From the IMG/VR virus record IMGVR_UViG_3300014204_006651, positions 16,416-80,415 of that record: 64,000 bases of DNA; one strand, given 5' to 3'. The notes beneath the pieces are model-generated. The model had not been told where the DNA came from and searched no databases. It worked only from the letters and a program-made list of their open reading frames with translations. This stretch comes from a virus (lineage: Duplodnaviria; Heunggongvirae; Uroviricota; Caudoviricetes). Both the position numbers and the translations under genes were made by a program. Shown here piece after piece: positions 951 through 53,592 of the stretch. The stretch's first letter is position 1; the number at the start of each line of letters is the position of its first letter.

Positions 951-1005
951 ATTAATATTTCATTATTAAGTTTGTATTTATGTGTATACTATAAAAATTC
1001 CAAGT

Positions 1006-2868
1006 ATGACATATAATGATTTTTTAAAATTTTTAAATGAATTTAATAAAATTAATACTTTTATTGGTAAGATTGATTATGCAAATAGAAATCTAAATAG
1101 GATTGCTTCAGGTACTGGAAGAATTGTATATGATATTGATGGTAATAAAGTATTTAAATTAGCTAAAAACACAAAAGGTATTTCACAAAATGATGCAGAA
1201 TCATCTGCTGCAGTATATAAAAGTTATGACGATATATTAACCGATGTTATTGAATATGCTGATGATGATTCTTGGTTAATAGCTGAAAAAGCAAAAAAAA
1301 TCACATCATTAAGATTTAAAGAATTAATTGGTTATGATATTAATCAGTTTTATGCTTATTTAGCAAATGATGATTTAGAAATAAATGGATATCCTAAACG
1401 ATATAAAATCGATCCTACTATTGAGGCACAAATGCATGATGATGAACAAATACAAAGATTTAGAAATTTTATAATTGATTATGATATTAATGTTGGTGAT
1501 TTTGGACGAATAAGTTCATATGGTGAAATTGTACGTGAAGGTATACCTACTTTAGTATTAACTGATTATGGATTAACTAAAGATAATTATAATACTCATT
1601 ATACTTCAACAAAAAATAAAAGTTATGTGTTACATGAATTATTTTTTGGTGATGGTAATGATGATATTCTTTCTGATATAGGGGGTAGTGAAGAAATTAG
1701 AATGGGAAATGCAACAATACCATTAAATTATGTTAGTGAAGACGGTAGTTCGAATTTTTCAACTGATAATACTTTAGGTCGAGATAATTTTCCAATATAT
1801 AATCAGATTGATACTTCACCATCAATCAATAATGATTCCGAGGCAAATAGTGAAATTGATGAAGATTTAGAATATAATCATGCCAGTGATGCAACAAAAG
1901 ATCAATATAGTATTACAGAACGTATAGTGTCAGCAATGCCGGGAAGTAGTAGTGTTGAAGTTAAAAAGAAATGTAGATTAGCAGGTAATGGTAATACAAG
2001 TACTGCATGTAATCAAGGAGATATAAAAAATTTAAATATTAAATCACTTAAAGAAACTGTTAATATTAATTTACCCAATGGTGAAATTGATGGGTTTCAA
2101 TCATTTGATATTATTAATAATAATCAAGTTATTGGTGAAATTGATATAATTAATCGTGATAATGGTTATATAATTCTTGATAAAATTTTTATTCATAAAA
2201 ATTATAGGGGTAAGGGTTATGCCAATGAAGTAATACAAATTTTATTTAAATATGCCGATAAATTTAATAAAATTATTACCTTAACCCCGGATAATATTTG
2301 GGGAGCAAATATGAATAAATTAAAAAGATGGTATCAATCTTTAGGTTTCACGATGAACAAAGGTAGAAATAAAGATTTTACAACAATGCAACTAATGTAT
2401 AGATTACCAAAAACATTAAATGAGGGATTTAATGGGAATTCTTTTGATAGTTGGTTTAGTGGTTCACAAGTAGTAGATAATGATGATAAACCTTTGGTTG
2501 TTTATCATGGCACAAATAAGAAATTTGATAGATTTAATTTAAAAAATGCAGCACAACCAATAATATGGTTTTCTTCGGATAAAAATAAAATAGAACGAGG
2601 TGAAGCAGGTGCTGCCGGAACAAGCAGAATTGTTCCAGCTTATTTATCAATAAAGAAAATGGCTGGCTGGAATGAATATGAAAAATATGGGTTGGGTCAA
2701 CTTTATGAAATGGGATATGATGGGGCAAAACTTGATGATGATTATTTTGTATTTAGTTCAAAACAAATAAAAATATTGAAAAATAAGAATAGTATTAATG
2801 TTACAAACTTAATGGATGAAATTAATAAAAATATAAATGAGGCAAGAAAATTAATGAATGTTAAATAA
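1006..2868 (+). CDS. multidomain enzyme with a protein-kinase-like N-domain, a central GNAT acetyltransferase and a C-terminal Tpt1/KptA-like ART-fold domain
   Basis: Kinase-like: GTGRIVYDIDGNKVFKLAK (Gly loop plus Lys) and IIDYDINVGDFGRIS (catalytic loop plus DFG). GNAT-like: IHKNYRGKGYANEV. Tpt1-like: VVYHGTNKKF ... IWFSSD, comparable to KptA LYHGT ... VHLSAD. The start is taken at the internal ATG because the track start at 982 overlaps the promoter motif. Confidence 0.5.
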   Translation: MTYNDFLKFLNEFNKINTFIGKIDYANRNLNRIASGTGRIVYDIDGNKVFKLAKNTKGISQNDAESSAAVYKSYDDILTDVIEYADDDSWLIAEKAKKITSLRFKELIGYDINQFYAYLANDDLEINGYPKRYKIDPTIEAQMHDDEQIQRFRNFIIDYDINVGDFGRISSYGEIVREGIPTLVLTDYGLTKDNYNTHYTSTKNKSYVLHELFFGDGNDDILSDIGGSEEIRMGNATIPLNYVSEDGSSNFSTDNTLGRDNFPIYNQIDTSPSINNDSEANSEIDEDLEYNHASDATKDQYSITERIVSAMPGSSSVEVKKKCRLAGNGNTSTACNQGDIKNLNIKSLKETVNINLPNGEIDGFQSFDIINNNQVIGEIDIINRDNGYIILDKIFIHKNYRGKGYANEVIQILFKYADKFNKIITLTPDNIWGANMNKLKRWYQSLGFTMNKGRNKDFTTMQLMYRLPKTLNEGFNGNSFDSWFSGSQVVDNDDKPLVVYHGTNKKFDRFNLKNAAQPIIWFSSDKNKIERGEAGAAGTSRIVPAYLSIKKMAGWNEYEKYGLGQLYEMGYDGAKLDDDYFVFSSKQIKILKNKNSINVTNLMDEINKNINEARKLMNVK

Positions 2869-2917
2869 TTAATGACCCTTTCCGTATCTTTTGTGGGTTT
2901 CCATACTATTTATTGTT

Positions 2918-3748
2918 ATGAGAAATAATTGGAGTGATATTGAAATTAATATACTTAAAATATATTATCCAAATACTAATGATATTAACATTGTTAAATA
3001 TTTTAATGGAAGAACGTTAACATCAATTAAAATTAAAGCAAAAAGATTGAAAATTTATCGTAATGATAAAATTAAAAAATGTAATCGTAGTAATGGTAGC
3101 GTTGGTATTAAAAATGGTATGTATGGAAAATCTTCTAAATTAAAAGGTAAAACATATGATGAATATTATGGTAATGAAAAATCCAAAATAATTAAAGATA
3201 AATTATCTAATAATAATATTGGTAAAATTGGTTCATTTGGTAGTAAAAATGGTATGTATAAAAAAATACCGTATAATAAAGGTATTTCACCAAGTAATGA
3301 AATTAAAAATAAAATAAAAAGTGGTATTAATAATTATTGGAATAATTTAAATAAATTTGAATTAAAAAAAAGAAAAGATAAATTAAGGGAAGATTGGATC
3401 ATAAAAAGAAAGAAATATTCTGAGATTGATACAATACCTGAAATAATAACTGAAAATATTTTATTAAAATTAAAAATTAAATATCAAAAAAAAATAAATA
3501 TTGGATATTATAATTGTGATTTTGTAGTCAATAATATTATTATTGAAGTACAAGGAGATTATTGGCATGGTAATCCAAAATTTTATAATTCATTTGATAA
3601 AATACAAGAAAAAAATATTAATAGAGATAAAAGAAAATTAAAATTCTTACAATCAAAGGGATATTTGACATTATATTTATGGGAAAATGATTTAAAACAT
3701 AATGTTGATTATTGTGAAAACCAACTAATAAAACATTTTTATGAGTAA
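2918..3748 (+). CDS. freestanding homing-endonuclease-like protein with a Vsr/DUF559-type PD-(D/E)XK C-domain and NUMOD-like repeats
   Basis: C-terminal NCDFVVNNIIIEVQGDYWHGN resembles the Vsr core FVDGCFWHG. Two KNGMYGK/KNGMYKK repeats resemble NUMOD3. The track start at 2891 is a TTG; the ATG at 2918 is preferred. Confidence 0.5.
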   Translation: MRNNWSDIEINILKIYYPNTNDINIVKYFNGRTLTSIKIKAKRLKIYRNDKIKKCNRSNGSVGIKNGMYGKSSKLKGKTYDEYYGNEKSKIIKDKLSNNNIGKIGSFGSKNGMYKKIPYNKGISPSNEIKNKIKSGINNYWNNLNKFELKKRKDKLREDWIIKRKKYSEIDTIPEIITENILLKLKIKYQKKINIGYYNCDFVVNNIIIEVQGDYWHGNPKFYNSFDKIQEKNINRDKRKLKFLQSKGYLTLYLWENDLKHNVDYCENQLIKHFYE

Positions 3749-5897
3749 AATAGAAAATTTTAGAAATGTGTTAATAAATAAACCATTTATTAAATCAATA
3801 ATTAATGATTTGAGAGGTGAATGTTATGCTGTAGGGGGGGTTGTTCGTGATTTAATACTAAATAAACCAAATAAAGATATTGATTTAGTTATTAGAAATG
3901 TTCCGATTGATAAACTAATTTTACAATTACAAAAATTTGGTAAGGTTGATGTCGTTGGTAAATCATTTGGTGTTATTAAATTTATTGATTCTGATGGTAT
4001 TGAATATGATTTAGCACTTCCAAGAACAGAAAAAAAAAATAATTTGGGGGGATATAGGGGATTTAATGTTCAAAGTGATCCAAATTTATCTGTTGATGAC
4101 GAACTTTTCAGAAGAGATGCAAAATTAAATGCTATGGCAATTAATTTAAATACTGGTAAATTTATTGATCCTTTGGGTGGATTAGAAGATATTGAAAAAA
4201 AACAAATATCTGCTGCAAATCCGGAAGCATTTAGTGATGATCCATTACGTATGTTAAGAATGGTTGGTTTTGCATCACGTTTTGGTTTTACAATTGAACC
4301 AAAAACAATGCAATTAATACAACAGAATGCTCAAAGAATAAAAGAAATTCCCCCGGAAAGGATTTTAACTGAATTTGAGAAAATAGTTAAAAAAGGAAAT
4401 AAAAGAGTTGGTGCACAATTACTTAAAAATACGGGATTATATAATCAAATTTTTGGTTCTGATTTAAAGCAATCTGTAATAGATAGGAGTCCATTTGAAG
4501 ATATTAAAACAATGGGTGAATTTATTTATTTATTAATACGGTTAAAATCAGACCCTGCAACATTTTATAAAAATAATTTAAAGGGTGATATTGACACATT
4601 TAAAGAAATTAAAGCAATTGATATTGCATATAATAGTAGTGAAAATTCCAATTCAATTAAAGCAAAAGCGGTTGCACACAATATGTATGCGTTATCTCCG
4701 CAATCACTTCAAAGTAAAATATTACCAAATATTATTGAAATTGCAGCACAGGAATTGCTTACTGGTAAATATCCTAAAATACTTGGTGATTTAGCAATAA
4801 ATGGTAATGATTTAACTGAAATAGGTTTTAAAAGTAAAGAAATTGGAAATATGCTTAAATCATTATTATTAAATATATATGCCGATAAAATTAAAAATAA
4901 TAAAGAAGAACTTTTAAATTTTGCTGAACAAAATAAATCAAGAAGTGGTGAAGTATTTGATGGAATAGCTGTTTATAGTGGTGTAATACTTGATGAAGAA
5001 TCAAGACAAAAATTAATTAAGGTTTTTAGTAGAATGATACCTAAAGATTGGGAAATAATTACACACCATATGACAATTAAAACTGGTAGACTTGATCCAG
5101 ATTCTAATGAAAAAAAGGATATTGAAAACAATAAAACAGTTGAATTAAGTGTTCTTGATTATGCAATGGATGATAAAGTAATGGCGGTTGGGGTTAAAGG
5201 TTATCCAAGTCAAAATACGAAACCACACATAACTTTGGGAGTTAATAGAAATGATGATGGTAAACCAGCAATGTCAAATAATTTAACTAATTGGAAACCA
5301 CTTGGTTTTCCATTAAAATTAACTGGAAAAGTTCGAGAAATTGAAGAAGAAATTAAAAATGTAAATGTTATTAACGAAAACGATAACATAAAAATTGAAT
5401 ATGGCTCATTAATGTTAAATTTAAATATTCCTAATTGGATTAGAATAACTTCAATTATTAATAAAAATGATATTTATAATGAAGAAGGTTTTGGAATTGA
5501 AAACGAACCACATTTAACAATTTTATATGGTTTTCATAATAATGTTACTGCGAATGATGTTTTTGATTTATATAAATCAGTAACTAAACTAAAACCAATT
5601 AAAATAATAACAACAGGTATTTCAAGTTTTGAAAATAATGAGTTTGATGTTGTAAAATTAGATGTTGAAGTTACTAATTTTTTAAAATTATTAAATAAAA
5701 ATATGAGGGAATTTCCAAACACTAATGAATTTAATGAATATAATCCACATGTTACAATTAGTTATGTAAAAAAGGGTTGTGGGAAAAAATATAATAAAGT
5801 ATTTAAAAATAAAATAAATTTAATTGGTGATGAATTAGTTTTTTCAACAAAAAAAAATAAACAAAAAAAAATAAAATTGAATAAAGAAAAGGAATAA
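3741..5897 (+). CDS. class II nucleotidyltransferase (CCA-adding enzyme/poly(A) polymerase head domain) fused to a C-terminal 2H phosphoesterase (LigT/CPDase-like)
   Basis: The head-domain motifs are all present: GGVVRD, DIDLV, FRRDAKLNAMA (RRD motif), IDPLGGLEDI and DPLRMLRMVGFASRFGF. The C-terminus has three H-x-T-x motifs (PHITLG, PHLTILYG, PHVTISY), typical of 2H phosphoesterases. The start overlaps the upstream stop (ATGAGTAA). Confidence 0.8.
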   Translation: MSKIENFRNVLINKPFIKSIINDLRGECYAVGGVVRDLILNKPNKDIDLVIRNVPIDKLILQLQKFGKVDVVGKSFGVIKFIDSDGIEYDLALPRTEKKNNLGGYRGFNVQSDPNLSVDDELFRRDAKLNAMAINLNTGKFIDPLGGLEDIEKKQISAANPEAFSDDPLRMLRMVGFASRFGFTIEPKTMQLIQQNAQRIKEIPPERILTEFEKIVKKGNKRVGAQLLKNTGLYNQIFGSDLKQSVIDRSPFEDIKTMGEFIYLLIRLKSDPATFYKNNLKGDIDTFKEIKAIDIAYNSSENSNSIKAKAVAHNMYALSPQSLQSKILPNIIEIAAQELLTGKYPKILGDLAINGNDLTEIGFKSKEIGNMLKSLLLNIYADKIKNNKEELLNFAEQNKSRSGEVFDGIAVYSGVILDEESRQKLIKVFSRMIPKDWEIITHHMTIKTGRLDPDSNEKKDIENNKTVELSVLDYAMDDKVMAVGVKGYPSQNTKPHITLGVNRNDDGKPAMSNNLTNWKPLGFPLKLTGKVREIEEEIKNVNVINENDNIKIEYGSLMLNLNIPNWIRITSIINKNDIYNEEGFGIENEPHLTILYGFHNNVTANDVFDLYKSVTKLKPIKIITTGISSFENNEFDVVKLDVEVTNFLKLLNKNMREFPNTNEFNEYNPHVTISYVKKGCGKKYNKVFKNKINLIGDELVFSTKKNKQKKIKLNKEKE

Positions 5898-5909
5898 AAA
5901 ATTATAATA

Positions 5910-6806
5910 ATGAGATTAGTTGCTTTCGACTTTGATAAAACATTAATTAATTCTCCTTTGGAAGATGAAGGTAAAGAAATATGGCTTGAAAAAACCGGAA
6001 ATTCATATCCATATAAAGGATGGTGGGGAAGACCTGAAAGTTTAGACATTAATGTTTTTAATATTAAACCATTTCCAAGCATATATAAACAATATAAAAA
6101 GGAAATTTCTACACCAGATACTTATGTAATCATTCTTACATCAAGAATAGAAAAATTACGACCACAAATTGAAGCAATTTTAAATAAAAATGATATACAT
6201 GTCAATGAAATTGATATGTTTAATGATAAATTAACAAAAGGTCAAAGAATTCTTGAATATCTTAAAAAATTTCCAGATTTAATTGAGATTAATGTATATG
6301 AAGATCGTCAAAGTGATATAGTTGCTTTAAAAAGTATTAGAAATCAAATTCCAGAAAATATTACATATAATATTTATTATGCAAGTAATGGTAATTTAGT
6401 ATTATTAGAATCAACTTCTAAAATAAATAATATTGTTAAAGAAGAAATTGAAAAATTTATAAATAACGATAATTATATATATCATGGTACACATATCGGT
6501 GCAGGTTTTCATATACAACGTGATGGTAAAATGAAATTATTTAATGAACCATATATTTCGTTTACCAGTGATCCAAATGTTGCAAAATATTATGCTAATA
6601 TGAAAGGCGGTTCTTCTGGAAGAAATATTATTTTAAGAACAAACTTAACTAAGGATTTTCAAGAATCTCCAAAATATGAAAAAAATAATGGACATGAATG
6701 GATAACTACAAAAGAAATACCTGTTGATGAATTGGAAATAAATAGTAAATATGGTTGGATTCCATTAAATAATTGGGATTTTATTGACAATAATATTAAA
6801 AAATAA
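5910..6806 (+). CDS. HAD-family phosphatase fused to a Tpt1/KptA-like (ART-fold) domain
   Basis: HAD motif I is FDFDKTL, motif II is ILTSR and motif IV is EDRQSD. The C-terminal YIYHGTH ... ISFTSDPNVAKYYANMKGG aligns with KptA LYHGT ... [18 protein letters not shown]. Confidence 0.55.
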   Translation: MRLVAFDFDKTLINSPLEDEGKEIWLEKTGNSYPYKGWWGRPESLDINVFNIKPFPSIYKQYKKEISTPDTYVIILTSRIEKLRPQIEAILNKNDIHVNEIDMFNDKLTKGQRILEYLKKFPDLIEINVYEDRQSDIVALKSIRNQIPENITYNIYYASNGNLVLLESTSKINNIVKEEIEKFINNDNYIYHGTHIGAGFHIQRDGKMKLFNEPYISFTSDPNVAKYYANMKGGSSGRNIILRTNLTKDFQESPKYEKNNGHEWITTKEIPVDELEINSKYGWIPLNNWDFIDNNIKK

Positions 6807-8169: not shown

Positions 8170-9156
8170 ATGGTAAATGAATTAGATATTATTGATGATT
8201 TTAAAAATGGATTTAACATTTCTGCATTGGAATCAAAATATGGTGGAAGAAGAAAAACATTACGTAAGATATTATTTAAAAATAATTTAATTGATTCGAT
8301 TGAACCAGTTAGAAAATGTTATTTTAATGGTGGCAATAAAGACGATATTAAAAATAAAGTATTAATAAAATATAAAAATGAAAAAAATCTAAAAATTTTA
8401 AGTGATGAATTTAAAATACCCATAATGTCAATATACAATTTTTTAAGAAAAGAGGATGTTTTTAATTCTGAATATGGAAAACAATTACATCATAATAAAG
8501 TAAGAAAATATTCATTAAATGAACAATATTTTGACAATATTGATTGTGAAGAAAAAGCATATTTTTGGGGAATTTTATATGCTGATGGCAATAATTCAAT
8601 AAAAAAAACTGAAATAAAATTAAATCTACAAGAAGATGATCATGAAATATTAATTAAATTAAATAATTTATTACAACCAACAAAACCAATCTTATATAAA
8701 CCAACAAATAGAATCAATTGCAAATCACAATATGCGTTAATTATTAATTCTAAGATTATATCATATAGATTAAATGAATTAGGTATCGTACCAAATAAAA
8801 CATTTAAAGTAGAATATCCTACATGGTTAAATAATGATTTAAATAGACATTTTATTAGAGGATATTTTGATGGTGATGGTTGCGTTACATTTAATAAAAT
8901 TAATAAACAATTATGTATTAGTTTTACTGGAACTGAAAATATGATGTTAGGTATACAAAGAATCTTGATGGATCAATTAGATTTTTATAAAACAAAATTA
9001 AGTAATAGATATCCAGAAAGAAATAACAACATTAGGTCATTAATGTATTTTGGTAATGGAAATTCCAGAAAATTTTATAATTATTTATATAATAATTCTA
9101 AAATATATATGGCAAGAAAGAAAAATAAATTTAATAAACATTTAAAATTAAATTAA
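8170..9156 (+). CDS. freestanding LAGLIDADG homing endonuclease
   Basis: Two LAGLIDADG-type motifs: AYFWGILYADGNN and IRGYFDGDGCVTF. It sits immediately upstream of the intein-containing gene. Confidence 0.7.
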   Translation: MVNELDIIDDFKNGFNISALESKYGGRRKTLRKILFKNNLIDSIEPVRKCYFNGGNKDDIKNKVLIKYKNEKNLKILSDEFKIPIMSIYNFLRKEDVFNSEYGKQLHHNKVRKYSLNEQYFDNIDCEEKAYFWGILYADGNNSIKKTEIKLNLQEDDHEILIKLNNLLQPTKPILYKPTNRINCKSQYALIINSKIISYRLNELGIVPNKTFKVEYPTWLNNDLNRHFIRGYFDGDGCVTFNKINKQLCISFTGTENMMLGIQRILMDQLDFYKTKLSNRYPERNNNIRSLMYFGNGNSRKFYNYLYNNSKIYMARKKNKFNKHLKLN

Positions 9157-9158
9157 AT

Positions 9159-11663
9159 ATGGATGGAAAAATAAAGATACTTTTTTATACGTTAGATTCT
9201 GCCGGGGTAGCGTATTTTCGTACACTTACTCCAGCAATGGAAATAGAAAGAAATCATAGTGATGAATTTTATGTTGAAATTAACCCACAAATTAATTTTA
9301 ATGATCCTAAATTTGTTGACTACTTAAAATCATTTCATATTATACATTATCATCGTCAATTTTTGAGTGATAGTAAACAAATGTTAAATTTAGCTAATGA
9401 GTTAAGAAAATCTGGAACAATTTTGATCTGTGATATTGATGATTATTGGCAATTACATAAAAAACATCCATTTTATAGTATGAGCCTCGAAAAAAAACTT
9501 TATATACCTATTTTGGAAAACTTAAAAATTGCTGATTATGTTACAACCACTACAGATTTATTTGCAAATGAAATTCGTAAAGTAACTGGTAGAGATAATG
9601 TTGGAGTATTTTATAATTCAGTTGATCCAACATGGATGAAACAATTTCAGAATAACTGGAAACCAGACCCGGATGGTAGAGTTAGGATAAGTTATATGGC
9701 AGGGTCGAGCCATATGGTTGATATTGAACAACTTGAAGGAGTTATGAATGTATTATCAAATGATACTTCATTAAGAGATAAATTTAAAGTAATTATAGCA
9801 GGTTGGGATACTGAAGGTAATACTACTGATATTACATTTAATCAGGAGTTTGGAACTGAACTCCAAAAAAGAGGTTTATGGGTATATGAAGTAGTTAAAG
9901 CAATTAATAATTCAAGAGGTGATGTGGATAAAATACCTAAATTACCCGCAGATTTAAAAGAAAAATATAGGGGAAAGATTTTTGATTCACAACAGAGAGA
10001 TATTAAATCAACTGAAAGTGTTTATTATTTATATGAAAATATTTTAACGGATAAACATAGAATGATAAATAATCCTGATTATTACCAATGGTTACATAAT
10101 TTTGAAAGAAATGTTGATTATCCCAATGAAGGAAATTTTGCACGTAGATGGACACAAAAAGCAAATACTTATGCACAAGTTTTAAATGAAACTGATATTG
10201 TACTTGCACCATTGGCTGATAATTCATTTAATAGAATGAAATGTGTTACTGAAGATACTTTAATATCAACCAATAAGGGGATATATAAAATTGGTGATAT
10301 TGTCAATAATTCTTGTAAGGACATTAAAATAATGCATGAAAATGTTATTAATTTATTTAAATATCCAAATGAAAGGGTAATTAAATTAACAACACATATT
10401 GGTGTTGAAATTGAGGGTACTGAGACACATAGAATAATGGTAGGGGGTGAGTGGAAAATGTTAAAAGATTTTGAAATTGGTGATCTTATTAATATTTCTC
10501 CTTTTGAAATTGAAACAAAAGAATACCAAAGAATTCATTATCCATTATTATTAAGTAAGAGGATAACTGAAACAACATTAAATAATTCAACTAAACTAAT
10601 GATGCCGTCAATTGAAATTAATGAGAATTACGGTAGATTTTTTGGATACATGGTTGGTGATGGTCATTTTTCAAAGGGTTATTTAAATATAAGTTGTGAT
10701 AAAAGACATATAAATGTGGTTCAAGATATTAAAGAACTTGTTGAAAGCATGGGATTAATGCCCATTATATATGAGAAAAAACCGGATAGTCGTTGTATAA
10801 ATTCATATATTAAAGAGGGTTTTGGTATTGAAGTTAGAATACCATCGAAGCATTTAGCAAATATATGTTATCAAGAGAATTTGAGAGATGAAAAGGGAAA
10901 GATTTTTGAAGTACCTCATTTTATATTAAAATCTCCAAAGTCTGTAATACGAGAATTTTTACGTGGATTATTCGAAGCAGACGGAACTGTTAATGCGGAA
11001 TCATCAAACATGAGTTTATGTACAAAAAGCTTTATTTTAGCCAAACAAGTACAATATTTATTACTTGGGTTTGGGATTGTATCAATCATAGACAAAGCAT
11101 TGAATAAGAAATATAAAAGATATTACTATTATGTTAAATTGAACCGTGATGCTTCGGATATTTTCTACAGTGAAATTGGGTTTATATCCGAAATTAAGTG
11201 TGAAAAATTAAAGAGAATTACCGAAAAATTACATAGTAATAGATTTATGAAACAAAGTTTTAATACTACCATTCTAAATGTTGAATATTCGGTAAAGGAT
11301 GTTTATGATGTTGAGGTTGAAAATATTCATCAATATAATGGTAATGGTATAATTAATCATAATTCAAATCTTAAGCAAGTTGAATGTTGGACAAGAAAAC
11401 TTCCTATTGTGTGTTCAGATATTCCACCTTATAATGTACATGGTAGGCATATGGAAAATTGTGTGTTAATCCCTGCTGTAAAAAATGCACATAAATATTG
11501 GCAAAAATATTTAAAAAGACTAATTTTAAATCCTGATTTAAGAAAACAAATTGGTGAACAACTTTATGAGGATTTTAAAGAAGACTATAATCTTGCAAAT
11601 GTTACTAAAAAACGTATAGAGTTTTATAAAGCAGCGGTTGCAAAAACATTGGCAGTAATTTAA
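9159..11663 (+). CDS. GT-B (GT4-like) glycosyltransferase precursor interrupted by an intein
   Basis: The N-extein ends ...LAPLADNSFNRMK and the C-extein begins SNLKQVECWTRKLPIVCSDIPPY. This is the GT4 E-x7-E region, a typical conserved-site location for intein insertion. Confidence 0.7.
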   Translation: MDGKIKILFYTLDSAGVAYFRTLTPAMEIERNHSDEFYVEINPQINFNDPKFVDYLKSFHIIHYHRQFLSDSKQMLNLANELRKSGTILICDIDDYWQLHKKHPFYSMSLEKKLYIPILENLKIADYVTTTTDLFANEIRKVTGRDNVGVFYNSVDPTWMKQFQNNWKPDPDGRVRISYMAGSSHMVDIEQLEGVMNVLSNDTSLRDKFKVIIAGWDTEGNTTDITFNQEFGTELQKRGLWVYEVVKAINNSRGDVDKIPKLPADLKEKYRGKIFDSQQRDIKSTESVYYLYENILTDKHRMINNPDYYQWLHNFERNVDYPNEGNFARRWTQKANTYAQVLNETDIVLAPLADNSFNRMKCVTEDTLISTNKGIYKIGDIVNNSCKDIKIMHENVINLFKYPNERVIKLTTHIGVEIEGTETHRIMVGGEWKMLKDFEIGDLINISPFEIETKEYQRIHYPLLLSKRITETTLNNSTKLMMPSIEINENYGRFFGYMVGDGHFSKGYLNISCDKRHINVVQDIKELVESMGLMPIIYEKKPDSRCINSYIKEGFGIEVRIPSKHLANICYQENLRDEKGKIFEVPHFILKSPKSVIREFLRGLFEADGTVNAESSNMSLCTKSFILAKQVQYLLLGFGIVSIIDKALNKKYKRYYYYVKLNRDASDIFYSEIGFISEIKCEKLKRITEKLHSNRFMKQSFNTTILNVEYSVKDVYDVEVENIHQYNGNGIINHNSNLKQVECWTRKLPIVCSDIPPYNVHGRHMENCVLIPAVKNAHKYWQKYLKRLILNPDLRKQIGEQLYEDFKEDYNLANVTKKRIEFYKAAVAKTLAVI
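10242..11363 (+). mobile_element. intein (374 aa) with a LAGLIDADG homing-endonuclease domain
   Basis: It begins with Cys (CVTEDTLIS) and ends with HN followed by a +1 Ser. The internal motifs FFGYMVGDGHF and EFLRGLFEADGTVNA are LAGLIDADG-like. The splice junctions restore a contiguous GT motif. Confidence 0.75.
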
Positions 11664-33446: not shown

Positions 33447-34913
33447 ATGACAAAAGAACGAATAGAAAAAGCAGTAGAAATAATAAAATATGCAATCAAA
33501 AATAAAATATCAGTTAAAGAAGCGTCAGTTAAATGTGGATATTCTGACACTTATGTAAAAAATGTTAAAAGAAAAATTTATGAAGCACACAATAATGGTG
33601 TTCTTAAAGAAGGACTTTTAAATATTTTTAATGAAGCATATAAAGAATATAAAAAGGGTAATGAACCTAACACATTTTTAACTAAAAAAAATTATTCTGA
33701 AAATACTAAAACACACAAACCAGAAGACCTTCCTAAAATAATAAAAGGAGAACAAACAACATTTAAAGTTAATGGTAATTCTGCAGATATAGAATGGAAA
33801 TCTGGTGGAAATTATCCTTCTGATCACGTAAGAACACTTGATCAATTATTAAAAATTTGTGAAGTTGATTTAAATCTTTGGCAAGTAAAAGATTATTTGG
33901 TTAATAAATGGGATGTAACAAGTTGGAAAAGTAAATATCCGGAAACACTTCAAAATTTTCAAGTTAAAGCACGTTTAGAAAAAAATATTAAAGTAGCTGA
34001 AGCAATAGACGTAATTGGAATGTTCAGGGAAATGGTTGAAAATTACGAACCCCCAATATATGATTGGATGCCTGAAACACCAAAAAGAACTGAAGAAAAT
34101 AATTTATTAGAAATATCAATATTTGATTTACATATTGGTAAACTTGCTTGGTGTGGGGAAACATACGAAAATTATGACACAAAAATTGCTCGTGAAAGAT
34201 TTTTAATTGCAATTGGAAATTTATTACATCGATCAAGCGGTTTTGAATTTTCAAGAATTTTATTTCCGGTAGGTAATGATTTTTTTAATTCTGATACAAT
34301 AACTAATACCACTACAAATGGTACTCCACAGGATGAAGACCTTCGTTGGCAAAAAACATTTAAAATCGGTTGTAAATTACTTGTTGATGCAATTTATCTA
34401 TTAAAAGAAACGGGTGTTCCTGTTGATGTAGTTGTTATTCCCGGTAATCATGATTTTGAACGTAGTTATTATTTAGGTGAATATTTGGATGCTTGGTTTA
34501 GGAATGATCCTGTTATTAACATAGATAATGGTGCATCACCAAGAAAATTCTATCGTTTTGGTGAAGTATTACTTGGATTTACGCATGGTAGTGAAGAAAA
34601 AGAAGGATCGTTGCCACTAATAATGGCAAGTGATATTATATCTAAACCTATGTGGAGTGAAACAAAATATCATGAATGGCATCTTGGTCACATTCATAGA
34701 AAAAGAAATGTAAACTATAGTGTTACAGATAAAAAAAGAACCTTAAATGAAGATTTAGGGGTTACAGTGAGATATCTTTCAAGTCTTACAGGAACAGAAG
34801 AATGGCATCATAAAAAAGGTTTTATTGGAGCAATAAAAGCAGCAGATGCGTTTGTTTGGAATGATAAACTTGGATTAGTAGCACATTTAAATTCAAATTT
34901 AATTATAGAGTAA
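33447..34913 (+). CDS. calcineurin-like metallophosphoesterase with an N-terminal HTH-like domain
   Basis: Motifs IFDLHIG (DxH), VGNDFFNSD, VIPGNHDF (GNHD/E) and EWHLGHIHR (GHxH). A promoter motif lies at 33364. Confidence 0.55.
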   Translation: MTKERIEKAVEIIKYAIKNKISVKEASVKCGYSDTYVKNVKRKIYEAHNNGVLKEGLLNIFNEAYKEYKKGNEPNTFLTKKNYSENTKTHKPEDLPKIIKGEQTTFKVNGNSADIEWKSGGNYPSDHVRTLDQLLKICEVDLNLWQVKDYLVNKWDVTSWKSKYPETLQNFQVKARLEKNIKVAEAIDVIGMFREMVENYEPPIYDWMPETPKRTEENNLLEISIFDLHIGKLAWCGETYENYDTKIARERFLIAIGNLLHRSSGFEFSRILFPVGNDFFNSDTITNTTTNGTPQDEDLRWQKTFKIGCKLLVDAIYLLKETGVPVDVVVIPGNHDFERSYYLGEYLDAWFRNDPVINIDNGASPRKFYRFGEVLLGFTHGSEEKEGSLPLIMASDIISKPMWSETKYHEWHLGHIHRKRNVNYSVTDKKRTLNEDLGVTVRYLSSLTGTEEWHHKKGFIGAIKAADAFVWNDKLGLVAHLNSNLIIE

Positions 34914-35465: not shown

Positions 35466-35497
35466 AATTGCTTCAATTGAGTTGGAGCAATTTTTGT
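35466..35497 (+). terminator. hairpin terminator
   Basis: TTGCTTCAA-TTGAG-TTGGAGCAA (one G-U pair) followed by TTTTT. It overlaps the track start at 35482, which argues for the internal ATG at 35512. Confidence 0.45.
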
Positions 35498-35511
35498 TTA
35501 CATTGATAATT

Positions 35512-36105
35512 ATGGTTGAAGATATAAATTTAATTAAAGAAGTTTTAAATAAAAATTATAAAGCTGAAAAATTATTTTTTGATAAATATAGAAAAATAAT
35601 TAAAAATTTTTTAAAAAATAAATTTTCAAAAATAGTTATTGATGACATAGATGATTATGTTTCAGATATTTTAATTAAAGTTTATGAAAATCTTAATAAA
35701 TATAATATTAAATTTAATTTTAAAACATGGGTATTAACCATAGCCAAACATCATATGATTGATGTTTGGAGAAATAATGCTATTACTATACCAATTAATA
35801 ATATTATTTTAGATGAAAATGATGATGAAAATAATTATTGTACAACAACAGGATGTTTAACCTTTAATGAAAATAGTAGTTTTAGTACATCATGTATTGT
35901 AGATTTTGAAAACAATAGTTCAATTTCATATATATCTTCACAATTATCCCCTGAAGATTATACTTTATTAACAATGAAGTATATTCAAGGATATGATTAT
36001 AATGAAATTGCTCAAGAATTTAATCTTACAAGTAGTACAATTAGCAATAAAGTAAATTATATTAAAACTAAACTAAAAAAAATTAACTTGGAGAGAGATT
36101 CATAA
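35512..36105 (+). CDS. sigma-70 family (ECF-like) RNA polymerase sigma factor
   Basis: Region 2 is WVLTIAKHHMIDVWRN. Region 4 HTH is YIQGYDYNEIAQEFNLTSSTISNKVNYIKTKLKK. Confidence 0.6.
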   Translation: MVEDINLIKEVLNKNYKAEKLFFDKYRKIIKNFLKNKFSKIVIDDIDDYVSDILIKVYENLNKYNIKFNFKTWVLTIAKHHMIDVWRNNAITIPINNIILDENDDENNYCTTTGCLTFNENSSFSTSCIVDFENNSSISYISSQLSPEDYTLLTMKYIQGYDYNEIAQEFNLTSSTISNKVNYIKTKLKKINLERDS

Positions 36106-36138: not shown

Positions 36139-37497
36139 ATGAAACAAGGTATTTTAGAATATATTAATCTAAAAAAAGAAATTGCTAAAAGTAAAGAAGG
36201 TAGAGATTATATAAAATATATTGTAGTTTCTAATATTAAAAATGAAACGTATAACGTAAAAGATAAACTAAAAGCTCTTGGTTTTAATTGGGATAGAAGA
36301 AATTTTAATTGGTATATATTTGGAAATAAATTAACCCATGATATTCTCGATGGGTTAAAACAAATCAATAATGAGTTGAAAACTGATGGTGGACAAACCG
36401 AAAATATAGATGAATTTATTTATTCATTAGAATCATTTAGAGAACAAATTAATACTTCATCAGCTACTCCAGAAGTTAAAGTTAATTTAACATCACTTCT
36501 TGATCAATATATTGAAGATATAGCAAATGCTACTGATTCAAGAGCAGCAGATGCTGAAATACAAAAATATATTGAATTTTCACATAAATTTCATAATTAT
36601 AGTTTTTTAAATTCAATATTAATTTATATTCAAGATAATAATGCAACAAAAGTTGCTGGTCGAAAAAAATGGGAAAGTTTAGGTAGACAAGTTATTAATT
36701 TAGATAAAAGAATTGTAATTAATTGTTTTAATGAATATTATGTTGATCCTAAAACTGGAAAAAGAATGTCGTATTCATTAGATCAAAAAAAATCAGATAG
36801 AGATTATGTTGCAAAAGTAAAGGGAGGTACTGAACCATTTGATAAGAAAAAAATGGATGATATTGAATCAAGAACTAAAATCATAAAAACTGGTTTTAGT
36901 GATTGTAGTGTTTATGATGTTGCCAATACAACAGGAGAAGCATTACCAGAAGAACCTACATGGAAAGGCACGTCTGATGATAGTGCAGATTCAATTGCAT
37001 TATTTAATATTGCTAAAAAAAGTTTAGAAAATTCGGGTATAAAAGTAACTCAAGACCCATCAAAACAAGGTGAAGGAGGTTTGAGTGGAATTGGTTATAT
37101 AAATATTAGTGCTGGTGAAAAAGGTAGTGGTGCTGCTTCGATAATTTTTCATGAATGGGGACATGAATTACTTCATCATCCTAATAGTAAGTTTCATAGT
37201 AGGTCATTAGAATATTTTGAAAAAAAAGGTGAATTAACATATACACAAATTAAACAAATAAAAGAAGTACAGGCAGAAACAATCTCTGCGGTATTATGTA
37301 AACATTATGCAATACCTACGAATCAACATCCTACATATATGGCTTTATGGCAAGGACAAGGTGGACTTAAAAGTAAAGAATTGATTAAAGAAAATATTGA
37401 AACTATTAGAGAAGTAAGTAATTTTATAATTAAACAAATTGAACTTAATAAAATAGAATTTGATAAGGCTAAAGAACTGGTACAACAACAAAAATAA
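36139..37497 (+). CDS. ArdC-like antirestriction protein (ssDNA-binding N-domain plus HExxH zincin) with an extra N-terminal extension
   Basis: FHNYSFLNSILIYIQDNNATKVAGRKKWESLGRQV matches the ArdC-N/DUF1738 consensus (YS.N ... AT.V.G...W..LGR.V). The C-terminal IIFHEWGHELLHH is an HExxH metalloprotease motif. A promoter motif lies at 36114. Confidence 0.6.
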   Translation: MKQGILEYINLKKEIAKSKEGRDYIKYIVVSNIKNETYNVKDKLKALGFNWDRRNFNWYIFGNKLTHDILDGLKQINNELKTDGGQTENIDEFIYSLESFREQINTSSATPEVKVNLTSLLDQYIEDIANATDSRAADAEIQKYIEFSHKFHNYSFLNSILIYIQDNNATKVAGRKKWESLGRQVINLDKRIVINCFNEYYVDPKTGKRMSYSLDQKKSDRDYVAKVKGGTEPFDKKKMDDIESRTKIIKTGFSDCSVYDVANTTGEALPEEPTWKGTSDDSADSIALFNIAKKSLENSGIKVTQDPSKQGEGGLSGIGYINISAGEKGSGAASIIFHEWGHELLHHPNSKFHSRSLEYFEKKGELTYTQIKQIKEVQAETISAVLCKHYAIPTNQHPTYMALWQGQGGLKSKELIKENIETIREVSNFIIKQIELNKIEFDKAKELVQQQK

Positions 37498-37930: not shown

Positions 37931-38225
37931 ATTTTAATTAATCGCATATATCATTATATGTATGATAATTCTAATGTTTATTTAATGCGTAAAAGAAAAA
38001 TTTTCCTTTCAATTTTGGAAAATAAAGATTATTTTTACGATATTAATAAATATAGAGTTCAAAAAAAACATAATATTGAATATAAAAACACATATTATAA
38101 TCAATCATAATTATCTAAAACATTAAGTAATGAGATTGGAATAAAAGAAACAACAATAAGAAGAATGTTGCAAAGAGGATATTCAATATCAAAAATAATT
38201 GAAAAACAAAAAATTATTTAAATTA

Positions 38226-41200
38226 ATGAGTATTAAAAAGATATGTCATTTGGGAGATATACATATTCGCAAAACACCCACACGAAATTCAGAATATGAG
38301 TTTGTTTTTAAAAATTTAATTAAATCACTTACTGAAAAAAAACCAGATAGAATAGTAATTGTTGGTGATTTAGTGCATGATTACCTTGATTTACAAGGTG
38401 AACAATTAATTATGGCAAATAGATTACTTAATGATTTAAGTAAAATTGCCCCTGTAAGAGTTACAAGAGGAAATCATGATTGCCGTAAAAAAAATTTAAA
38501 AAGAGTTGATTCAATAAAAGCAATTGTTGAAACACTAAATAATCCTGAAGTTATTTATTATGATAAAACAGGATTTTATGAAGATAAAAATATTAATTGG
38601 GCAGTTTGGCATCATGGTGAAATAAAAAATAATCCTTGGAAAAATAAAGAAGGTAAACATATTCTGGAAAATCCGAATCATTTTTTAAATATTGATTTAT
38701 TTCACGATCCAATCAATGGTTGTAAAGCAGTGAACGGTTTTGATATGAAAAGTAAATCATATTATAAACTTTCAGATTTTAAGGGAGATTTATCATTTTT
38801 TGGGGATATTCATAGAATGCAATTTTTAGATGAAACACATACAAAAGCATATTGTGGTTCATTAATCGCACAGGATATTGGAGAAGGTGATGATAATTTT
38901 CATGGATATTTATTATGGGACGTAGAAACTAAAACTTCTGAATTAATATCAGTTAAAAATTATCATTCATATAATAATATTAAAATTTCACCATTTACGG
39001 ACTTTGACGATTTGGATTTTGAAATTCCTAACCCAACACGGGAAATGCATGTTAGATTCATTTGGAACACTCTTCCACAAACGAGAACTAAAGAAAATGA
39101 AAGAAAATTAATAAGTTATATAAAATCTAAATATTCTAATTTAATTATTTTACATAAAAATAACTTTATTGAAAGTGAAAATATTGAAATAAATGAAAAC
39201 GTAACACTTCAAAATATTTCAAGTAAAACTGTTCAGCATGAAATTTTTACGGAATTTTTAGAAAAAATAGGAACAGATGCTAATATTATTAATGATGTAA
39301 TTACTTTGGATGAAGAAATCCTCAATGAAATTAATATTGATGAAGATGTTAGTATTGAATGGAATATTATTAAATTCGGTGGTATTAATTTTGCGTCTTA
39401 TGGTCAATTGGATATTGATTGGCGAGATATGGACGGGTTATTTCAAATTACAGGTATTAATACTGCAGGAAAAACAACAATATTAAAATTAATAACATAT
39501 ATTCTTTTTAATAAATCATTAGAAACTGAATCTCGATTAAAATATGGTGATAAACGATTTGTTAATGATAGGAATGGTGCTACATATTGTGAAACATATC
39601 TTGTTTTAGAAGCTAATGGTGAATATTTTGGTATTAAAAGAAGAACTGATATTATAAGAAATAAAGAAGGTGAAATTACTGGTGCACCAACAAAATTAAA
39701 CCATTATATACTTTCTAATCCTGATGAAGAAATGAATGAAAATACTTCATTAGAAAAACTGGATGCAGATAAAAGGATTATTACACAAAATAAACTCGAA
39801 TCAATTATTGGTGCATATGATGATTTTATGCGTATTGTGATGACAACATCTGATACTCTTAATAAAATATTGTCTAATGATATGGCAATTTTTATTGATT
39901 CTTTATTGTCTGATAGTGGTTTAGATATTTTTGATAAAAAATTAGAAGGTTGGAAAATTATAAATAAAAGAATTAATGAAAAATCACGCATTTCTTGTAA
40001 TATTGAAATTAAAGAAATGGAAATTGCTACTTTTACTGAAGAAATTAATTTATTTGAAAGTAATATATATGATATTGAAATAATAAAATTACCAACTATT
40101 CAAAATAAAATTTCTACGGGACGTACATATGTCGAAACATTAACTAAGAAATTATTTAAAATAGACCCCGAAATTTACGATTTAAACGTAGATACGGTTA
40201 GAAAGGATATAAGAGTTCATCAAATGAACATAAATGATTACAATGCACGTAAAATAATATTAAATGATATTATTATTCAACTTAAAGAATCTTATAATGA
40301 AAAACAACTAATTAAACTAATTGAAAAAAAAGAAGCTCACAAAACCATCGAATATAATAAAAAATTTGAAATTAAAACTATTGAGCAAATTATTCGAGAT
40401 GAAGAACATGCTATTGAAATAATTAATGGGGAAATTTTTAGATTAAAACAGGATGGGACAAAATTAAAAACTGAAAGACAAAATTTAAAAAATAGTAAAA
40501 TTTGTAGTCAATGTGGACAAATTATTGATAAAAAAGAACATCAAGATCATATTGCTAATAATATTAAAATAAAAGAAATTGAAATGTTTTCAATTGCTGA
40601 AAAAATTAATGAAAAAGAAAAAATTGATAAACAAAATCATTTAAATAAAATCGAAATTAAAAAGGGTGAAATAATTCCAATTCAAAAAAGTATTGAAAAT
40701 TCGGCACTTGAAATGGAAAATGTATTAAGAGAAATAGGTGAACTTCTGAACGATAAAAATGATGTTGATAAACGTAAAGAATTATCAACAGAATTAAATC
40801 AAATACCAATATTGATTCAAAATGAAGAATTGAAAATTAATATACTTCAACAAAAAATAAATAATTACGAAAATAGTTTAAAGCAAATAGAAGAAAATCA
40901 TAATACTGAAAAAGTTATTACTGCTGCAAAACAAAAATTATTAGTGCTTGAATCTGAAGAATTTAATGAAAAGGAAAATATTTTCATTATGAAAACCAGT
41001 GTTGCTGAAAAACAAAAAAAGATTAAAGAAAATGATCAATTAATTATCGATTTTAAAGCACAAGAATATAGAGATTCAGTTATGAATTTATATAAAATGT
41101 GTGTTCACCGGGATGGCATTCCAAGACAAATGTTAAGTAATTATATTATCCCAAAAATTAATCTAACACTTGAAAATATATTATCAGTTGCACCATTTAA

Positions 41201-41555
41201 AGTATGGCTTGATCAAGATGATTTACGACCTAAATTAGTCTATAATAATAGACCAACCTCAATTATTGATTGTATTGGTGGAAGTGGTAAAGAAAGAACA
41301 TTTTCCAGTGTGGTGTTAAAATTTGCATTAAATCAAATTAATGTGAAAGCCAAGCCAACAATATTTTTACTTGATGAGGTGATGGGTAAATTGGATTTGG
41401 AAGGAAGTGTTGAGGAATTTATTGAAATATTACAACTAATTAAATTAAATATGAAAAAGGTATTAATCATTGAACAAGTTCATAATATAGAACCAGACTA
41501 TTTAATTACTGCACAATTGGATGAAAATGGTATATCATCAATTACTATTGAATAA
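38226..41555 (+). CDS. single-chain Mre11(SbcD)-Rad50(SbcC) fusion nuclease/ATPase
   Basis: N-terminal metallophosphatase motifs HLGDIHI, VGDLVHD and TRGNHDC. Then the Walker A P-loop GINTAGKTTILKL, a long coiled coil containing a CSQCGQ zinc hook (CxxC), a signature-like GGSGKER and Walker B/D-loop IFLLDEVMGKLD. The ATG at 38226 is preferred over the TTG at 38199. Confidence 0.75.
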   Translation: MSIKKICHLGDIHIRKTPTRNSEYEFVFKNLIKSLTEKKPDRIVIVGDLVHDYLDLQGEQLIMANRLLNDLSKIAPVRVTRGNHDCRKKNLKRVDSIKAIVETLNNPEVIYYDKTGFYEDKNINWAVWHHGEIKNNPWKNKEGKHILENPNHFLNIDLFHDPINGCKAVNGFDMKSKSYYKLSDFKGDLSFFGDIHRMQFLDETHTKAYCGSLIAQDIGEGDDNFHGYLLWDVETKTSELISVKNYHSYNNIKISPFTDFDDLDFEIPNPTREMHVRFIWNTLPQTRTKENERKLISYIKSKYSNLIILHKNNFIESENIEINENVTLQNISSKTVQHEIFTEFLEKIGTDANIINDVITLDEEILNEINIDEDVSIEWNIIKFGGINFASYGQLDIDWRDMDGLFQITGINTAGKTTILKLITYILFNKSLETESRLKYGDKRFVNDRNGATYCETYLVLEANGEYFGIKRRTDIIRNKEGEITGAPTKLNHYILSNPDEEMNENTSLEKLDADKRIITQNKLESIIGAYDDFMRIVMTTSDTLNKILSNDMAIFIDSLLSDSGLDIFDKKLEGWKIINKRINEKSRISCNIEIKEMEIATFTEEINLFESNIYDIEIIKLPTIQNKISTGRTYVETLTKKLFKIDPEIYDLNVDTVRKDIRVHQMNINDYNARKIILNDIIIQLKESYNEKQLIKLIEKKEAHKTIEYNKKFEIKTIEQIIRDEEHAIEIINGEIFRLKQDGTKLKTERQNLKNSKICSQCGQIIDKKEHQDHIANNIKIKEIEMFSIAEKINEKEKIDKQNHLNKIEIKKGEIIPIQKSIENSALEMENVLREIGELLNDKNDVDKRKELSTELNQIPILIQNEELKINILQQKINNYENSLKQIEENHNTEKVITAAKQKLLVLESEEFNEKENIFIMKTSVAEKQKKIKENDQLIIDFKAQEYRDSVMNLYKMCVHRDGIPRQMLSNYIIPKINLTLENILSVAPFKVWLDQDDLRPKLVYNNRPTSIIDCIGGSGKERTFSSVVLKFALNQINVKAKPTIFLLDEVMGKLDLEGSVEEFIEILQLIKLNMKKVLIIEQVHNIEPDYLITAQLDENGISSITIE

Positions 41556-49630: not shown

Positions 49631-49661
49631 AAAAGTATCAATTATTTGATACTTTTTTTTT
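49631..49661 (+). terminator. rho-independent terminator
   Basis: AAAAGTATCAA-TTAT-TTGATACTTTTTTTTT. Confidence 0.5.
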
Positions 49662-49699
49662 ATCTATTAGTCTGTATTTATAGAAAAAAGTTAAAAATT

Positions 49700-53304: not shown

Positions 53305-53592
53305 TTATTGCCAAATTAATTGTTCAGTAAATGTACCTTCAATACTTTCAGAATCATAATATTTATCGAAATTTTCTTCAGTCATATATGCTCTTTTCAT
53401 TTTATTTTCACCGTATAGTAGATAATCGAACATATCAATCATAGTATTAAAGAAAATATATGTTCCTTCCCGATAAATATAGACAAAACTATCTTTCCAA
53501 TCACTAATGGGAGAATAATTAAGCAAGACACCTAATGTCCTGCTTTTATCTGAATATTCTTCTTCGTGAGCAGTTTTAATTTTTGTGATCAT
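53305..53592 (-). CDS. hypothetical protein
   Basis: 95-aa ORF that overlaps the end of the M23 gene by 17 nt. Confidence 0.4.
   Translation of the reverse strand: MITKIKTAHEEEYSDKSRTLGVLLNYSPISDWKDSFVYIYREGTYIFFNTMIDMFDYLLYGENKMKRAYMTEENFDKYYDSESIEGTFTEQLIWQ

Follow-up and report, generated by a model that had tools for sequence, protein, structure and literature searches.

A phage CCA-adding enzyme fused to two 2H phosphoesterase domains: a candidate for healing and rebuilding tRNA 3' ends

Why would a phage tie an enzyme that adds CCA to tRNAs to phosphoesterases of the 2H superfamily? The question is raised by a gene in a 64,000-nucleotide stretch of the IMG/VR virus record IMGVR_UViG_3300014204_006651 (positions 16,416 to 80,415 of that record; hereafter, the window), which is tailed phage DNA, as shown by genes for a baseplate wedge and for SbcC/SbcD-like proteins. 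The gene is an open reading frame (ORF) at 3741..5897 on the plus strand and encodes a protein of 718 residues, in which a CCA-adding enzyme is followed by two different 2H domains that we refer to as 2HA and 2HB. The reading that we prefer, with a probability of about 0.55, is that this phage enzyme heals and rebuilds tRNA 3' ends and does so within a conserved huge-phage cassette. The established part of this reading comprises the identities of the domains, their intact catalytic motifs, a fusion that recurs among relatives, and a conserved gene order.

The N-terminal 400 residues carry the hallmarks of a class II nucleotidyltransferase. The motifs GGVVRD, DxD, and RRD, together with DPLRMLRMVGFASRF, all of which had been noticed in the original prediction, are present at residues 32, 46, 124, and 167 (the last at nucleotide 4239). 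Both Pfam domains that, with motifs A, B, and D, characterize the superfamily were found as well, namely the PolyA_pol head (residues 28-156; 74.3 bits, cut-off 23) and PolyA_pol_RNAbd (residues 182-238; 60.4 bits, cut-off 22), and judging by its motifs A to E, the CCA part is complete. The best NCBIfam model was that of the Bacillus-type CCA enzyme, PRK13299, which matched over positions 21-394 of 396 with 151.6 bits (equivalog cut-off 290), as compared to 91.6 bits for the pcnB model; all NCBIfam nucleotidyltransferase scores lay under the curated cut-offs. The closest solved structure by sequence was 1MIV, the 404-residue CCA enzyme of Geobacillus stearothermophilus (E 2.2e-23), in which motifs A and B are separated by a loop of about the same length.

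These matches bear directly on the earlier idea that the 2H sequence sits in the protein instead of the usual HD domain, which we reject. No Pfam match to an HD domain was found in the 718-residue protein, as would mark an E. coli-type enzyme, and the HD-bearing E. coli-type model NF008137 aligned over positions 3-207 of 409 only, whereas the HD-less PRK13299 model matched over nearly its full length and 1MIV was the nearest solved structure by sequence. To our knowledge, Bacillus-type class II CCA enzymes never bear an HD domain. Because the CCA scaffold is of this HD-less type, the 2H domains are additions to it and not replacements.

Within the C-terminal 318 residues, four of the six histidines lie in HxT motifs (histidine, any residue, threonine), while shuffled sequences gave a mean of 0.34 (P ~5e-5). 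Three of these motifs, HITL, HLTI, and HVTI at residues 496, 591, and 670, had been taken as the marks of a single 2H region. The fusion of 2H sequence to the CCA enzyme stood up to our analysis, but a fourth motif, H443-M-T-I, had been overlooked, and the region was modeled as two independent domains with low-confidence linkers between them. Both domains adopted the 2H fold in the structure models, the first of two points on which the original prediction could have failed, with predicted local distance difference test (pLDDT) values of 89.7 for 2HA and 88.6 for 2HB, and their mutual relationship is remote (hhalign probability 32%). Homologs were taken as the best 120, in which modules were delimited by phmmer and then aligned. 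In these alignments the HxT histidines, the second such point, turned out to be conserved: H443 and H496 of 2HA were found in 51/51 sequences each, with T445 in 51/51 and T498 in 49/51, and H591 and H670 of 2HB in 26/26 each, with T593 in 25/26 and T672 in 26/26. Almost all other positions conserved among 2HA and 2HB homologs are also kept in the window copy. With two conserved HxT/S motifs per domain and the 2H fold, 2HA and 2HB both show the defining features of the superfamily, and the protein is thus a class II nucleotidyltransferase superfamily member with two bona fide 2H domains, and not an HD-type multifunctional CCA enzyme.

The first of these domains resembles a miniature CNPase. Pfam tRNA_lig_CPD (PF08302) matched 2HA with 25.6 bits, above the cut-off of 23, and 24 of 27 relatives of 2HA also exceeded this threshold. 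A structure model was needed for the family assignment because a PDB sequence profile search with 2HA gave chance matches only. CNPase and the cyclic phosphodiesterase (CPD) domain of Trl1 convert a 2',3'-cyclic phosphate into a 2'-phosphate, and if active, a CNPase-like domain of 125 residues would be among the smallest 2H enzymes. A profile search with 2HA returned 952 matches, mostly stand-alone proteins of ~127 residues and many of them on large phage contigs. Among 50,697 GenBank phage records, a single 2HA match was found, in Agrobacterium phage Atu_ph07 (MF403008.1, 2144-2491; L005, 5001-5348), a 490-kb jumbo phage, where it is annotated as "hypothetical protein" and lies beside Clp ATPase and IF3 genes; CNPase-like 2H phosphoesterase would be a possible new annotation for this protein.

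The second domain belongs to a broader LigT/Acb1-like group. Pfam 2_5_RNA_ligase2 (PF13563) matched 2HB with 32.1 bits, above its cut-off of 27. The Acb1 family PF23474 scored 23.6 bits with the whole protein and 25.6 bits with the domain alone, both under the cut-off of 27, and LigT/ThpR TIGR02258 scored 33.7 bits, under the equivalog cut-off of 65.7. Because these thresholds were not reached, 2HB is not classifiable as either Acb1 or LigT/ThpR. Comparison of the 2HB model with solved 2H enzymes gave about equal scores for Usb1 (12.1), the poxvirus cyclic GMP-AMP (cGAMP) phosphodiesterase (11.9), AKAP18 (11.9), YjcG (11.7), LigT (11.6), and Acb1 (10.8). A profile search with 2HB yielded 709 matches, mostly stand-alone proteins of ~180 residues in many phages (for example, L034 6001-6537, L035 6001-6549, and L036 6001-6771), and the gene neighbors of these three suggest that the 2HB family may also work independently of CCA enzymes. 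On a 327-kb contig, one stand-alone 2HB relative lies close to NUDIX, WYL-like, and gp25 genes.

The fusion itself appears robust. Independent JGI, ENA, and Logan assemblies, with contigs of up to 327 kb, contain an exact copy of the protein, and therefore the fusion is not an assembly artefact of the window. A frameshift or assembly error was likewise rejected on the grounds of this identical protein elsewhere and of a single ORF with the same CCA-2HA-2HB order in L015. In the best 120 homologs, we observed CCA-2HA in 29 proteins, 2HA-CCA in 11, CCA-2HB in 9, 2HB-CCA in 7, CCA-2HB-2HA in 9, and the window's own CCA-2HA-2HB order in 1, and the fusion thus recurs in huge-phage metagenomic contigs with a shuffled order of modules. 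Some homologs extend the fusion further: 2HA, CCA, and HAD_SAK_1 form single tri-domain proteins in P0084, P0116, and P0118, P0026 reads GNAT-CCA-2HA-HAD, and P0053 reads NUDIX-CCA-2HA.

A similar picture was obtained from gene order. We scanned 26 IMG/VR loci, whose CCA parts are 48-74% identical, with the module profiles; 23 of them had downstream DNA. CCA was followed by 2HA on the same strand in all 23, and 2HA by a HAD gene and then a ParB-like gene in 22, while the GNAT/ART-PolyVal gene upstream of CCA was missing in two. 2HA lay in the open frame of CCA in six loci and otherwise formed a separate gene of 127 residues. The HAD gene usually followed 2HA at a distance of tens to a few hundred nucleotides (for example, in L012, L013, and L014), and this proximity was also kept in loci where 2HA and CCA are parted by homing endonucleases or other inserts. 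By comparison, 2HB, whose place in the conserved order is between CCA and 2HA, was present in 12 of the 23 loci and is an optional member of the cassette.

The HAD gene that directly follows the fusion protein in the window carries a DxDxT motif, FDFDKT, and resembles the "Swiss Army Knife" RNA repair phosphatases, a concept of which Burroughs and Aravind, in 2016, are said to have written the source paper. HAD_SAK_1 (PF10307) scored 23.7 bits in the window copy, slightly under the cut-off of 25.6, with orthologs at 27.6 and 36.0 bits and copies fused within homologs at 28.3-32.4 bits. The C-terminal module of 110 residues in this gene gave no Pfam match; it shows a YHGT...SFTSD pattern and a weak likeness to ART-PolyVal (BLAST E 0.046).

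From these elements, a pathway can be proposed. A metal-independent RNase of the host, or another effector that targets the tail, would cut the tRNA short and leave its 3' end closed off by a 2',3'-cyclic phosphate, which 2HA would open to a 2'-phosphate and a free 3'-OH. The HAD_SAK phosphatase would then strip the monophosphate, after which the N-terminal CCA-adding enzyme would restore the missing C, C, and A. 2HA and HAD would thereby provide in trans what the HD domain provides in E. coli-type CCA enzymes, while 2HB would be an optional accessory, either for 3' ends that are blocked or extended in another way or with a separate role against signalling nucleotides. A coupling of cyclic-phosphate removal to CCA re-addition had been suggested before; it is the alternative best supported by the fusion and the gene order, but the pathway is incomplete without the downstream HAD gene, which had been overlooked. 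A scan of 31 window ORFs (a part of all ORFs) with Pfam or PHROGs turned up no RNA ligase, polynucleotide kinase, or RtcB, which fits a rebuilding of ends better than a sealing of breaks. The same division of labor was predicted for jumbo phages by Iyer et al. (2021; PMC7824862), where 2H enzymes clear 2',3'-cyclic ends, the linear phosphate is taken off by a "Swiss-army-knife" HAD, and CCA is put back by CCA-adding enzymes.

Several observations weigh against this reading. The substrate, be it tRNA or another RNA, and the regiochemistry are deduced from family resemblance at 10-18% identity, and no tRNA gene was found in the 64,000-nucleotide window. HAD enzymes of the T4 Pnkp type open cyclic phosphates unaided, such that 2HA is not strictly needed chemically; two different 2H domains are redundant under a simple repair model; and cleavage of the Cas12a3 type (RuvC) would leave a 3'-OH for which no 2H domain is needed. 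Stand-alone relatives of 2HB adjoin gp32 in T4-like marine phage contigs, and not RNA-repair genes. The 23 loci belong to one phage lineage and include several near-duplicates, and the conservation of gene order is therefore partly inheritance instead of independent selection. Lastly, members of this CCA clade also occur in fusions with GNAT, ART-PolyVal, and NUDIX domains, and such fusions resemble "polyvalent" counter-defence proteins, whose domains need not share a substrate.

The latter point leads to a reading that we consider possible, if rather doubtful, in which the protein is itself a polyvalent counter-defence protein: the CCA enzyme would mature or repair tRNAs, while 2HB, and possibly 2HA, would degrade immune signalling nucleotides such as the cyclic di- and trinucleotides of CBASS (cyclic-oligonucleotide-based anti-phage signalling system), the cyclic oligoadenylates of type III CRISPR, or 2',3'-cyclic nucleoside monophosphates (2',3'-cNMPs). 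2HB would then be an Acb1-like nuclease joined to a further counter-defence enzyme; the Acb1 alternative can apply to 2HB alone and not to 2HA. A comparison with the Acb1 family had been proposed at the outset. The 22 members of the 2HB family all matched Pfam Acb1 (best E 3.8e-9), some of them over its threshold (for example, P0014 with 31.5 bits), but the window 2HB stays under it, and its match is confined to the model's C-terminal half. A PDB profile search with 2HB retrieved Acb1 structures 7T26 (E 5e-4) and 9Q2G (E 0.003), and hhalign of the 2HB family gave a probability of 89.5% against T4 Acb1 (gp57B; E 2e-6, 46 columns around the second HxT) and only 8.5% against E. coli ThpR; yet Usb1 and LigT are at least as close to 2HB in fold as Acb1 is, and a tblastn search of the 50,697 phage records found no characterised T4-like Acb1. 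The signatures H-x-T-I-x-Y and DY-x-P-H-I-T-x-S-Y are common to 2HB and Acb1. Acb1 stacks bases with Y12, W74, F107, and W147 and has a C-terminal lid (PMC9117128). At the first three of these four positions, 2HB has the aromatic residues Y554, F630, and F664, as placed by hhalign and inspection, with an unreliable alignment in the first half, where MAFFT misaligned the first HxT of T4 Acb1 and residue matches rest on inspection only; no evident equivalent of the lid tryptophan W147 is present in the C-terminal tail of the window protein. The neighborhood and the homologs also bear domains of the kinds often seen in polyvalent proteins, namely ART-PolyVal, GNAT, and ParB-like ones. The optional presence of 2HB in the cassette and its mostly stand-alone life elsewhere, including T4-like contigs without RNA-repair neighbors, favour an independent and possibly anti-signalling role for this domain, whereas the several independent architectures that join it directly to one or the other end of CCA favour a role at tRNA ends and suggest a functional tie. 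For 2HA, the tight pairing of a CNPase-like domain with a phosphatase gene follows the logic of end healing and not that of signal degradation.

A pure housekeeping function, which we regard as decidedly improbable, would have the enzyme mature many phage tRNAs that lack a genomic CCA, with the 2H and HAD domains serving ordinary RNA turnover or nucleotide salvage (such as hydrolysis of 2',3'-cNMPs) in place of repairing damage done by host immunity. The CCA part is that of a complete standard enzyme, tblastn found relatives in 482 phage records, and jumbo phages rich in tRNAs often encode CCA-adding enzymes (PMC7824862). The lack of tRNA genes in the window, which is part of a genome of ~327 kb, speaks against this function, and maturation alone does not explain why CCA, 2HA, and HAD are so persistently fused or adjacent. 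Ordinary tRNA 3' processing leaves a 3'-OH, so that neither a cyclic phosphodiesterase nor a phosphatase is necessary. Still more remote, in our estimate, is a route linked to NAD, in which 2HA makes a 2'-phosphate that an ADP-ribosyltransferase (ART)-fold domain of the cassette moves to NAD+, as Tpt1/KptA does. The ART would be either the upstream ART-PolyVal or the module after HAD, and 2HB would hydrolyse ADP-ribose 1''-2'' cyclic phosphate. ART-PolyVal is conserved beside CCA or fused to it, NUDIX fusions exist, and KptA-type ARTs and NAD-dependent RNA repair are reported for some jumbo phages by Iyer et al. 2021 (PMC7824862). Against this route, no similarity of the cassette's ART modules to Tpt1/KptA emerged, the likeness of the module after HAD to ART-PolyVal is weak, as noted above, and phosphate removal is already accounted for by the HAD phosphatase.

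The end-healing reading that we prefer can be extended into a relay, which is speculative and in our view unlikely. In this relay, 2HB, which resembles Acb1 and Usb1, might cleave a 3'-5' phosphodiester and so trim a blocked or extended terminal nucleotide, leaving a 2',3'-cyclic phosphate for the CNPase-like 2HA, with the HAD phosphatase and the CCA enzyme to follow. Its targets might include A76 pyrophosphorylated by CapRel/toxSAS or extensions added by MenT. Such a relay would explain the coexistence of two different 2H domains and would form a complete answer to immunity that targets the tRNA tail.

Either way, the biological setting makes the protein of interest. Bacterial immune and toxin systems disable translation through the universal CCA tail of tRNA, and because the attack is on a universal tRNA feature, phage-encoded replacement tRNAs offer no escape. 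HEPN RNases cut tRNA acceptor ends. Cas12a3 cleaves tRNA CCA tails in anti-phage immunity (PMC12851939), CapRel/toxSAS pyrophosphorylate the CCA end (PMC9712102, PMC11559606), and MenT toxins extend it, an effect that the CCA-adding enzyme PcnA counters (PMC11541572). The authors of the Cas12a3 study stated that viral resistance mechanisms were unknown and anticipated "yet unknown means of resistance" (PMC12851939). The fusion protein is a concrete candidate for viral resistance to such tail-targeting immunity, residing in a widespread huge-phage cassette, and the relay, if true, would be a means of resistance of the kind anticipated there. If end healing is indeed its function, it would also be a natural case in which the repair function of the E. 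coli-type HD domain is provided by unrelated folds, 2H and HAD.

The features of the locus are collected in Table 1. Upstream of the CCA gene, the L001 ortholog of the GNAT/ART-PolyVal protein has 1309 residues, and GNAT or ART-PolyVal is directly fused to CCA in some homologs (P0026, P0031). The DUF559 ORF in between is missing from this position in L001, and a similar gap in L003 is filled by a NUMOD3 endonuclease; the DUF559 ORF is probably a mobile homing endonuclease outside the system. Related loci have different endonucleases, or none, at this position and at that of the LAGLIDADG ORF downstream. The ORF of 834 residues further downstream has an intein-less ortholog of 459 residues in L001, which matches both exteins at 79-81% identity. 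Two more conserved modules accompany the CCA cassette in P0004-P0017 and L003 (3526-4128); one contains WNVNGE..NFFVKEYDKWN..SVLEFLQNNYEDF and the other GGSTYHEGGHVHGL..GVSMGADKNGFYVYTHR, and the window protein carries neither.

Table 1. Features in and around the fusion gene, with nucleotide positions in the window.
Feature	Position	Strand	Basis or remark
Whole ORF, 718 residues	3741..5897	+	Pfam and NCBIfam matches; N-terminus agrees with homologs
Class II tRNA nucleotidyltransferase, Bacillus type, head/neck/body/tail, residues 1-400	3741..4940	+	Pfam, PRK13299, 1MIV
Motif A GGVVRD, residue 32	3834-3851	+	Motif search
Motif A DID, residues 46-48	3876-3884	+	Motif search
Motif B RRD, residue 124	4110-4118	+	Motif search
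Motif D DDPLR, residues 166-170	within 4236-4283	+	Motif search
2HA, miniature CNPase / tRNA-ligase-CPD-like 2H phosphoesterase, residues ~410-535	4968..5345	+	Pfam and structure model
2HA HxT motif H443-M-T-I	5067-5078	+	Motif search
2HA HxT motif H496-I-T-L	5226-5237	+	Motif search
2HB, LigT/Acb1-like 2H phosphoesterase, residues ~555-712	5403..5876	+	Pfam and structure model
2HB HxT motif H591-L-T-I	5511-5522	+	Motif search
2HB HxT motif H670-V-T-I	5748-5759	+	Motif search
HAD phosphatase, "Swiss Army Knife RNA repair" family (HAD_SAK_1-like), with 110-residue C-terminal module	5910..6806	+	Pfam, synteny
HAD domain with DxDxT motif FDFDKT	~5910-6473	+	Motif and Pfam
C-terminal module of HAD gene, 110 residues	6474..6806	+	Only in some orthologs
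GNAT acetyltransferase and ART-PolyVal, syntenic upstream companion	982..2868	+	Pfam; conserved in related loci
DUF559 (Vsr-like) endonuclease ORF between the GNAT/ART-PolyVal and CCA genes	2891..3748	+	Pfam DUF559, 21.4 bits
ORF with ParB-like DGHHR motif, 276 residues	6836-7666	+	No Pfam match; directly after HAD gene, 22 related loci
LAGLIDADG homing-endonuclease-like free-standing ORF	8170-9156	+	Inserted between conserved cassette-region genes
ORF of 834 residues with intein bearing LAGLIDADG endonuclease (residues ~363-735)	9159-11663	+	L001 comparison

In the window at large, the G+C content is ~25%, and an Rfam scan of the window gave no family matches. A group of genes could be identified at 33447-34913, 35482-36105, 36139-37497, 38199-41555, and 49646-50467 on the plus strand and at 53576-54490 on the minus strand, which includes SbcD-like, SbcC-like, sigma-70-like factor, amidase, and M23 peptidase genes as well as one that weakly matches the N-terminal domain of ArdC. 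Near 53 kb, the coding strand and the GC skew both switch. In related contigs, gp25 lies near the cassette.

How does this protein compare to known systems? Published work already covers the families of its components and the parts they are predicted to play in phage RNA repair. In the literature that we searched, there appears to be no description of the fused CCA and dual-2H protein, of the miniature CNPase-like module, or of the conserved CCA/2HA/HAD cassette without a ligase. The RNA-repair toolkits of jumbo phages, as described in the available portion of PMC7824862, use the same families (CCA, 2H, and SAK-type HAD) with the same predicted division of labor, but there they are separate genes that support RNA ligases, whereas the cassette in the window is fused or adjacent, has two 2H domains, and no ligase or kinase was found with it among the ORFs scanned. 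Relative to the CNPase and fungal and plant tRNA ligase CPD branch (PF08302; PDB 2xmi), 2HA is reduced to ~125 residues from ~210-250, matches profile positions 138-218 of 250 only, at 12-18% identity, and is free of the kinase or ligase attached in the tRNA ligases. With Acb1 (T4 gp57B; PF23474; 7T26/7T27), 2HB shares the compact phage 2H domain and the signatures at both HxT motifs, and it differs in the sub-threshold, half-length Pfam match, in the lack of an evident lid tryptophan, and in being fused to CCA, where Acb1 stands alone.

The closest relatives of the CCA part are the Bacillus-type enzymes (1MIV, PRK13299), with which it shares the head/neck/body/tail layout, motifs A to E, and a length of ~400 residues, while the window protein has 318 extra C-terminal residues that form the two 2H domains; we know of no characterised CCA enzyme with two such domains. 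In the E. coli CCA enzyme, the HD domain reportedly acts as a 2',3'-cyclic phosphodiesterase, 2'-nucleotidase, and phosphatase (work attributed to Yakunin et al., 2004). With the E. coli-type enzymes, the window protein would thus share the concept of CCA addition and the clearing of cyclic and monoester phosphates from the 3' end on one polypeptide, whereas it bears no HD domain and its proposed healing would rely on a metal-independent 2H domain and a separate HAD phosphatase, which would make it a non-homologous analogue of that enzyme type and not a member of it.

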